From assembly GCF_044324875.1 (NCBI RefSeq), contig NZ_CP172185.1: DNA of 64,000 nucleotides. One strand, given 5' to 3'. The notes under the pieces were generated by a model, which saw only the letters and a program-made list of their open reading frames with translations, was not told the DNA's origin and ran no database searches. Positions 59,661 to 59,678 of this stretch are shown here, piece after piece. The stretch comes from Escherichia coli (GTDB lineage Bacteria; Pseudomonadota; Gammaproteobacteria; Enterobacterales; Enterobacteriaceae). The translations under genes and the position numbers were made by a program. Positions within the stretch are counted from its first letter, which is position 1; each line of letters starts with the position of its first letter.

Positions 59661-59678
59661 ATCCTACAGGCGTAAGAA
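59661..59678. promoter_or_regulatory. Putative EvgA box in the evgA-emrK divergent region
   Basis: Bottom strand reads TTCTTACG-CC-TGTAGGAT, matching the EvgA-box consensus at 16/18 positions. Confidence 0.4.

Follow-up and report, generated by a model that had tools for sequence, protein, structure and literature searches.

The window analysed here is a stretch of 64,000 nucleotides (64 kb) of Escherichia coli DNA (NCBI RefSeq contig NZ_CP172185.1) in which the genes for the regulator EvgA and the kinase EvgS are transcribed divergently from the emrKY transporter operon. Gene names follow the RefSeq annotation of a genome with 99.9% identity, and the Pfam domains agree with them; a 701-bp query over the spacer between the two operons matches many E. 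coli chromosomes at 99.9% identity. The locus is organized as follows.

55224-58817, minus strand: evgS, a 1197-aa open reading frame for a hybrid kinase
58822-59436, minus strand: evgA, a 204-aa open reading frame with Response_reg and GerE/LuxR helix-turn-helix domains
55224-59436, minus strand: evgA and evgS together, which encode the regulator of the box
59437-59851: the 415-bp spacer between evgA (minus) and emrK (plus), host to the box
59661-59678, strand not assigned: EvgA box, an 18-bp imperfect inverted repeat; its minus strand is TTCTTACG-CC-TGTAGGAT
59661-59668, plus strand: half-site ATCCTACA of the EvgA box
59671-59678, minus strand: half-site TTCTTACG of the EvgA box
59852-61015, plus strand: emrK, GTG start, a 387-aa open reading frame for an HlyD-type adaptor
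61015-62553, plus strand: emrY, a 512-aa open reading frame for an MFS permease
59852-62553, plus strand: the emrK-emrY operon, very probably activated from the box

The 204-aa product of 58825-59436 on the minus strand matches both Response_reg (E=1.5e-27) and GerE (E=2.8e-22); EvgA belongs to the NarL/FixJ type of response regulators and carries a LuxR-type helix-turn-helix. A 63-aa open reading frame at 59624-59815 on the minus strand, which overlaps the box, was rejected as a gene and is without RefSeq annotation here or in K-12.

The plus strand of 59661-59678 is ATCCTACAGGCGTAAGAA, and its reverse complement, TTCTTACGCCTGTAGGAT, is exactly what a first-pass annotation of this DNA had read from the bottom strand as an imperfect EvgA box. 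The same annotation had set the box between the divergent evgAS and emrKY operons, and that is where it lies, in the 415-bp spacer, with the emrK start codon 174-191 bp downstream.

The EvgA box and its counterparts in the regulon

EvgA reportedly recognizes an 18-bp inverted repeat, TTCYTACA-N2-TGTARGAA, a consensus said to come from the work of Masuda and Church in 2003 and of Itou in 2009. The consensus was validated on the sequences of other regulon promoters; a full-text literature search that combined the consensus strings with EvgA returned irrelevant matches only. Compared to TTCYTACANNTGTARGAA, the box has two mismatches and matches at 16/18 positions. The consensus has three matches in the 64-kb window when up to two mismatches are allowed, versus 0.00 expected from shuffles, and four matches with up to three mismatches, versus 0.49 expected. 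The core CYTACNNNNGTARG occurs in exactly three copies in the window (0.08 expected). All of the consensus and core matches in the window are intergenic, and they are found upstream of yfdX, upstream of frc, and between emrK and evgA. A half-site weight matrix, trained solely on five other EvgA sites with the flagged box left out, scores the box at 19.1 bits, which ranks third in the window; the best background 18-mer reaches 12.1 bits, and no 18-mer in 30 shuffles reaches 19.1.

The other matches within the window belong to two further promoters of the regulon.

48640-48657, strand not assigned: EvgA box upstream of yfdX (start at 48793), TTCCTACAATTGTAAGAC, one mismatch
48678-48695: second, weaker EvgA-like box of yfdX, TAACTACAGCTGTAAGAT, three mismatches
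49669-49686, strand not assigned: perfect EvgA box, TTCTTACAGTTGTAAGAA, 251-268 bp before frc (start at 49937)

The weaker yfdX box is found 38 bp downstream of the main one, between the main box and yfdX, and its weight-matrix score of 13.9 is the fourth best in the window. In K-12, boxes with one or two mismatches are present upstream of safA, ydeP and yegR. The boxes of yfdX, frc, safA, ydeP and yegR all have at most two mismatches, such that the emrK box marks a sixth regulon promoter region, and these six regions are those that the literature calls directly regulated by EvgA. An EvgA site has been described at all directly EvgA-regulated genes (Johnson 2014), and EvgA-bound inverted repeats are marked before yfdX and before yfdW/frc (PMC3720670). 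A search of the region upstream of gadE found no EvgA-box match with up to three mismatches, even though gadE is a reported direct target of EvgA. A match with two mismatches, TTCTTACGCATGAAAGAA, is found in the coding region of mdtE (L093 5887-5904; K-12 3659886-3659903).

The emrK box resembles the ydeP, safA-ydeO, yegR, yfdX and frc boxes in that each follows the consensus with zero to two mismatches and has an invariant CYTAC core. It differs from the other five E. coli sites by a G at inner position 8 of the promoter-proximal half-site, and none of the others has a target operon on one side and the operon of its own regulator on the other. It is like the EvgA site of evgA/emrK in K-12 in locus, sequence, motif, regulator and target operon. 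The K-12 site was reportedly footprinted by Kato and coworkers in 2000. The flagged box is believed here to be that same evgA/emrK EvgA site, in an E. coli other than K-12.

The two mismatches are a G for A at half-site position 8, in the emrK-proximal half, and an A for T at half-site position 1, in the distal half. The CYTAC core (positions 3-7) is intact in both halves of the box and invariant among the EvgA sites compared, and the variation among the other sites is confined to half-site positions 1, 2 and 8: ydeP AGCCTACA, yfdX GTCTTACA, safA TGCCTACA and yegR TTCCTACT. Positions 1 and 8 vary in the ydeP, yfdX and yegR sites too, and ydeP, a standard strong EvgA reporter, has two mismatches as well. 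Given that the mismatches fall at normally variable positions and that ydeP carries just as many, the box is no outlier. By its sequence it appears to be an ordinary member of its class, with no special low-affinity design.

The first-pass annotation had also compared the imperfect half-sites to a perfect frc site, which is indeed present, and had suggested graded affinity. Induction of the six EvgA units can be compared in a microarray study of an evgS-constitutive mutant, via the list of genes changed more than 4-fold (Johnson 2014 Table S4). The log2 fold changes are given with the mismatches of each box.

emrK 5.03 (about 32-fold), emrY 3.64: two mismatches
frc 8.37: no mismatch
yegR 7.75: one mismatch
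yfdX 6.97: one mismatch
ydeP 6.02: two mismatches
ydeO 5.55, safA 3.85: one mismatch

In this one array, emrK has the second-lowest first-gene induction among the six units, with only safA lower. Mismatch count and induction are related in the expected direction, with a Spearman rho of -0.62 to -0.77 that is non-significant (n=6, one-sided permutation p 0.05-0.12), and fold change depends on basal level too. Graded affinity by mismatch count is a weak trend, neither supported nor excluded.

Conservation of the box

The 18-mer is identical in K-12 MG1655 (2483512-2483529) and O157, and the window strain differs from K-12 here by flanking polymorphisms only, for example at 59656. An alignment of the spacers of 10 ordinary E. 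coli strains, chosen to span the range of identity, has identical half-sites in 10/10; one strain differs, in the 2-bp spacer of the box only. Of 5426 complete E. coli genomes, 4855 contain an exact copy of the box-centred 30-mer, and 370 more have a spacer-only variant. The divergent Escherichia L002 has a perfect consensus, TTCTTACACCTGTAGGAA, with A in place of G at box position 8 and in place of T at position 18, and Yersinia vastinensis has TTCTTACACGTGTAGGCA, with one mismatch, at the equivalent place. The spacers as a whole are 85% (L002) and 65% (Y. vastinensis) identical, and the box core is kept in both. The longest run that is invariant across 12/12 aligned spacers is 14 nt, AATACAATTCTTAC on the minus strand, which includes the emrK-proximal half-site. 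That half-site is joined in the invariant run by the flank on the emrK side.

59679-59692, plus strand: conserved flank, TTGTATTGCAAAAG

The box is therefore conserved above the surrounding non-coding DNA. Its identity as an EvgA box, as first proposed from the sequence alone, is thus upheld by the motif match, the shuffle statistics, the weight matrix and conservation.

The Yersinia sequence comes from Y. vastinensis IP38594 (NZ_CACVAF010000001.1, 590 kb), in which an evgA with 94% amino acid identity to that of E. coli is divergent from emrK, with both the box and the promoter spacing preserved. It looks like the whole evgA/emrK module was acquired horizontally from Escherichia. Around the evgA homologues of Hafnia, Klebsiella, Enterobacter and Buttiauxella, a search for the full consensus came up empty. 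With a relaxed core, box-like sequences turned up in Hafnia and in an Enterobacter metagenome-assembled genome (MAG), and none in Klebsiella or Buttiauxella. In the Enterobacter MAG and in Hafnia alvei, the evgA homologues (66-68% identity) each face a divergent transporter gene across a box-like dyad: TTCCTACGTCTGTAGTCC (L006 2915-2928) with a gene for an EmrK-like adaptor in the former, GTCCTACGTATGTAGGCG (L004 2567-2580) with a gene for an amino-acid permease in the latter. The arrangement of regulator, box and divergent transporter seems to be older than Escherichia.

Two other occurrences were noted in the course of the searches. On E. coli plasmids such as pCFSAN061762 (113.9 kb), evgA-evgS and the upstream box have been captured between IS1 copies, with IS1 in place of emrK about 126 bp beyond the box; plasmid matches numbered 14-20 across the genome searches. 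In the assembly of Rhizobium cauense HU25, a 398-bp contig codes for residues 1-114 of EvgA, 100% identical to the E. coli protein; the assembly is almost certainly contaminated with E. coli DNA.

Activation of emrKY and predicted architecture of its promoter

Direct binding of EvgA to the emrKY promoter region is attributed to Kato 2000 in passages of PMC8174306, PMC8350985, PMC9496106 and PMC5706723. PemrK is the standard direct EvgA reporter, and induction of emrK depends on EvgA in Shigella and in E. coli (Pasqua 2019; PMC5706723). Together with the log2 fold change of 5.03 for emrK in the evgS-constitutive mutant, the reported binding supports the emrKY activation that the first-pass annotation had assigned to the box. 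With a probability of about 0.9, 59661-59678 is the EvgA operator already established for the evgA-emrK spacer, activating the emrKY efflux-pump promoter on the plus strand. Nothing about the box departs from the described EvgA family; site, regulator and target operon have all long been characterized as parts of the acid-resistance and efflux regulon of E. coli and are textbook knowledge.

To compare the promoters, the sequence downstream of each EvgA box was aligned by anchoring on the box. The following elements were found at emrK.

59703-59710, plus strand: half-site-like element GTCCTCTG, 25-32 nt after the box
59732-59737, plus strand: predicted emrK -10 hexamer TAAATT, with an implied start site near 59744

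Elements at the same offset are GTCCTATT at safA, GTCTTATT at ydeP and ATCCTATT at yegR, as well as ATCTTCTG at emrK of L002 and GTCTTCTA at emrK of Y. vastinensis. An RTCYT element is found exactly 25 nt after the box at emrK, safA, ydeP and yegR. The emrK element, GTCCTCTG, at about -41 to -34, may belong to the -35 region or offer EvgA a secondary point of contact.

At emrK, safA, ydeP, yegR and frc, counting from the centre of the box, a -10-like hexamer begins at +62/+63. The hexamers are TATATT with an upstream TG at safA, TAATTT at ydeP, TATTAT at yegR and TATTCT at frc, and TAGAAT at Yersinia emrK aligns with the emrK hexamer. The ydeP leader is 178 nt (Gorelik 2024; PMC11210196). Therefore, the centre of the ydeP box is at -74.5, which fits the ydeP hexamer as a -10 element. 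By analogy to ydeP, the predicted start of emrK transcription is near 59744 (K-12 about 2483447), which would place the box at about -74.5. Another feature that ydeP and yegR have in common is ATTTAAACACTA-GAGAG around the presumed start site.

The shared offsets of element and hexamer suggest a common, possibly duplicated, promoter module, and the architecture represents fewer independent cases than promoters, given that the safA and ydeP promoters look paralogous. The module would be fixed at emrK, safA, ydeP and yegR and would consist of a high-affinity dyad at about -74.5, the RTCYT element at -41 to -34 and a weak -10; it is offered as a tentative proposal, and a rather unlikely one. A generic scan of 59400-59900 for sigma-70 promoters and terminators did not call the predicted emrK promoter; the one promoter-like match, at 59575-59604 on the plus strand, is upstream of the box, versus 2.3 expected by chance, and is uninformative. 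A different, constitutive emrK promoter, TTGATA-17-TTTCAT at 59783-59811, nearer to the gene, has been predicted (Shimada 2014); a transcript from it would start near 59818.

Direction and mode of EvgA action

On the side of evgAS, two start sites are placed by published leader coordinates (Gorelik 2024; PMC11210196).

59550-59565, minus strand: evgA promoter core, extended -10 TGGTATACT at 59565-59557, start at 59550 (-114 from the ATG)
59560, minus strand: second evgA start (-124 from the ATG)

Therefore, the centre of the box is at -109.5 or -119.5 with respect to evgA transcription. A -10-like hexamer, TACAAT, is present at 59610-59615 on the minus strand (TATAAT in O157, TW11681 and L002). 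It is at +55 from the box centre in the direction of evgA and implies a start about 167 nt upstream of evgA, which does not fit the literature starts at -114 and -124. Apart from the box, the evgA leader is the best-conserved part of the spacer. At 59433-59462 on the minus strand is evgL, a 9-codon leader open reading frame, ATGCTTCATTGCAAAGGGAATAATCTATGA, overlapping the start codon of evgA; its K-12 counterpart is annotated and has the same sequence.

The first-pass annotation had held the position of the box to suit autoregulation as well as activation of emrKY. One EvgA dimer bound between the two divergent operons could activate both emrKY and evgAS, and EvgA is said to be positively autoregulated in the summaries of EcoCyc/RegulonDB. 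A compilation also lists EvgA as autoregulating, via one site and with a flag for weaker evidence, citing Tanabe 1998 and Eguchi 2003 (PMC3219618). Such a bidirectional operator is nevertheless improbable. The distance of -109.5 or -119.5 from the evgA starts, versus about -74.5 at the targets, would by itself be compatible with some effect, but the evgA side is also without the RTCYT element and without the -10 spacing common to EvgA-dependent promoters. Neither evgA (b2369) nor evgS (b2370) is in the list of genes changed more than 4-fold in the evgS-constitutive mutant (Johnson 2014 Table S4). A passage of PMC8174306 states that EvgS levels are constant and that evgAS is not autoregulated, citing Eguchi 2003, and in macrophages evgA mRNA is unchanged while an emrK-gfp fusion is strongly induced in an EvgA-dependent manner (Pasqua 2019). 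Autoregulation of evgAS via the box is doubtful, and on balance the box acts towards emrKY, with little or no contribution to evgAS transcription.

How EvgA activates emrKY from the box is a separate matter, as EvgA might mainly relieve repression by H-NS rather than recruit RNA polymerase directly. The spacer has a GC content of 34%, versus 49% for the window, and emrKY is said to be derepressed in hns mutants, a result credited to Nishino and Yamaguchi in 2004. The emrK-evgA spacer has also been marked as associated with H-NS (Shimada 2014). Counter-silencing as the main mode is possible, if somewhat unlikely, given that a fixed spacing from box to promoter recurs at several EvgA targets and is maintained between lineages, which suggests stereospecific contact; counter-silencing and direct activation are not mutually exclusive. 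There is next to no probability that the repeat is a chance palindrome without a regulatory role, or the site of another LuxR-type regulator such as RcsB. The spacer is AT-rich, and the left half of the RcsAB box resembles the right half of the EvgA box, TAAGAAT. The other RcsAB half-site is missing, however, and an RcsAB box at TAAGAAT was rejected on that account. A chance palindrome is effectively refuted by the statistics and by conservation, given the 0.00 matches expected in 64 kb with up to two mismatches, a core that is conserved in diverged spacers, and the same motif upstream of all other members of the regulon.

For the preferred reading, an EvgA operator that activates emrKY, the following mechanism is proposed. 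Mild acidity and alkali metals are the signals sensed by EvgS, the kinase that phosphorylates EvgA (PMC8174306; Pasqua 2019). A dimer of phosphorylated EvgA would bind to the 18-bp dyad through its LuxR-type helix-turn-helix domains, with the binding taken from the literature and the domains observed in the encoded protein. From about -74.5, a position deduced from the promoter alignment, it would activate a weak sigma-70 emrKY promoter that has the weak -10 TAAATT and no good -35. Extra EvgA contacts may be made at the -41 to -34 element, as with BvgA, and H-NS on the 34%-GC spacer may be partly overcome by EvgA, either as a rival to this scheme or as a complement to it.

The closest homologous two-component system is BvgAS, in which BvgA acts at the fha and bvg promoters of Bordetella. 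Like EvgA, BvgA is of the NarL/FixJ type, and the inverted heptad-like repeat (TTTCYTA-like) that it binds is located a good distance upstream of a weak promoter. At the Bordetella promoters, further BvgA dimers fill in towards the -35 region. The placement of GTCCTCTG near -41 to -34 would fit such filling-in, in which multiple EvgA dimers might occupy the emrK promoter. The two systems differ in that bvgAS is clearly autoregulated, but evgAS apparently is not.

The box should be annotated as an activator site for emrKY and not as evidence of evgAS autoregulation. If the promoter module is true, it would imply BvgA-like filling-in by extra EvgA dimers and would make the evgA-emrK box intrinsically one-directional, and evgAS would therefore be without autoregulation despite having the box in its upstream region. 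The module, if new, would provide a testable model of promoter activation by EvgA.
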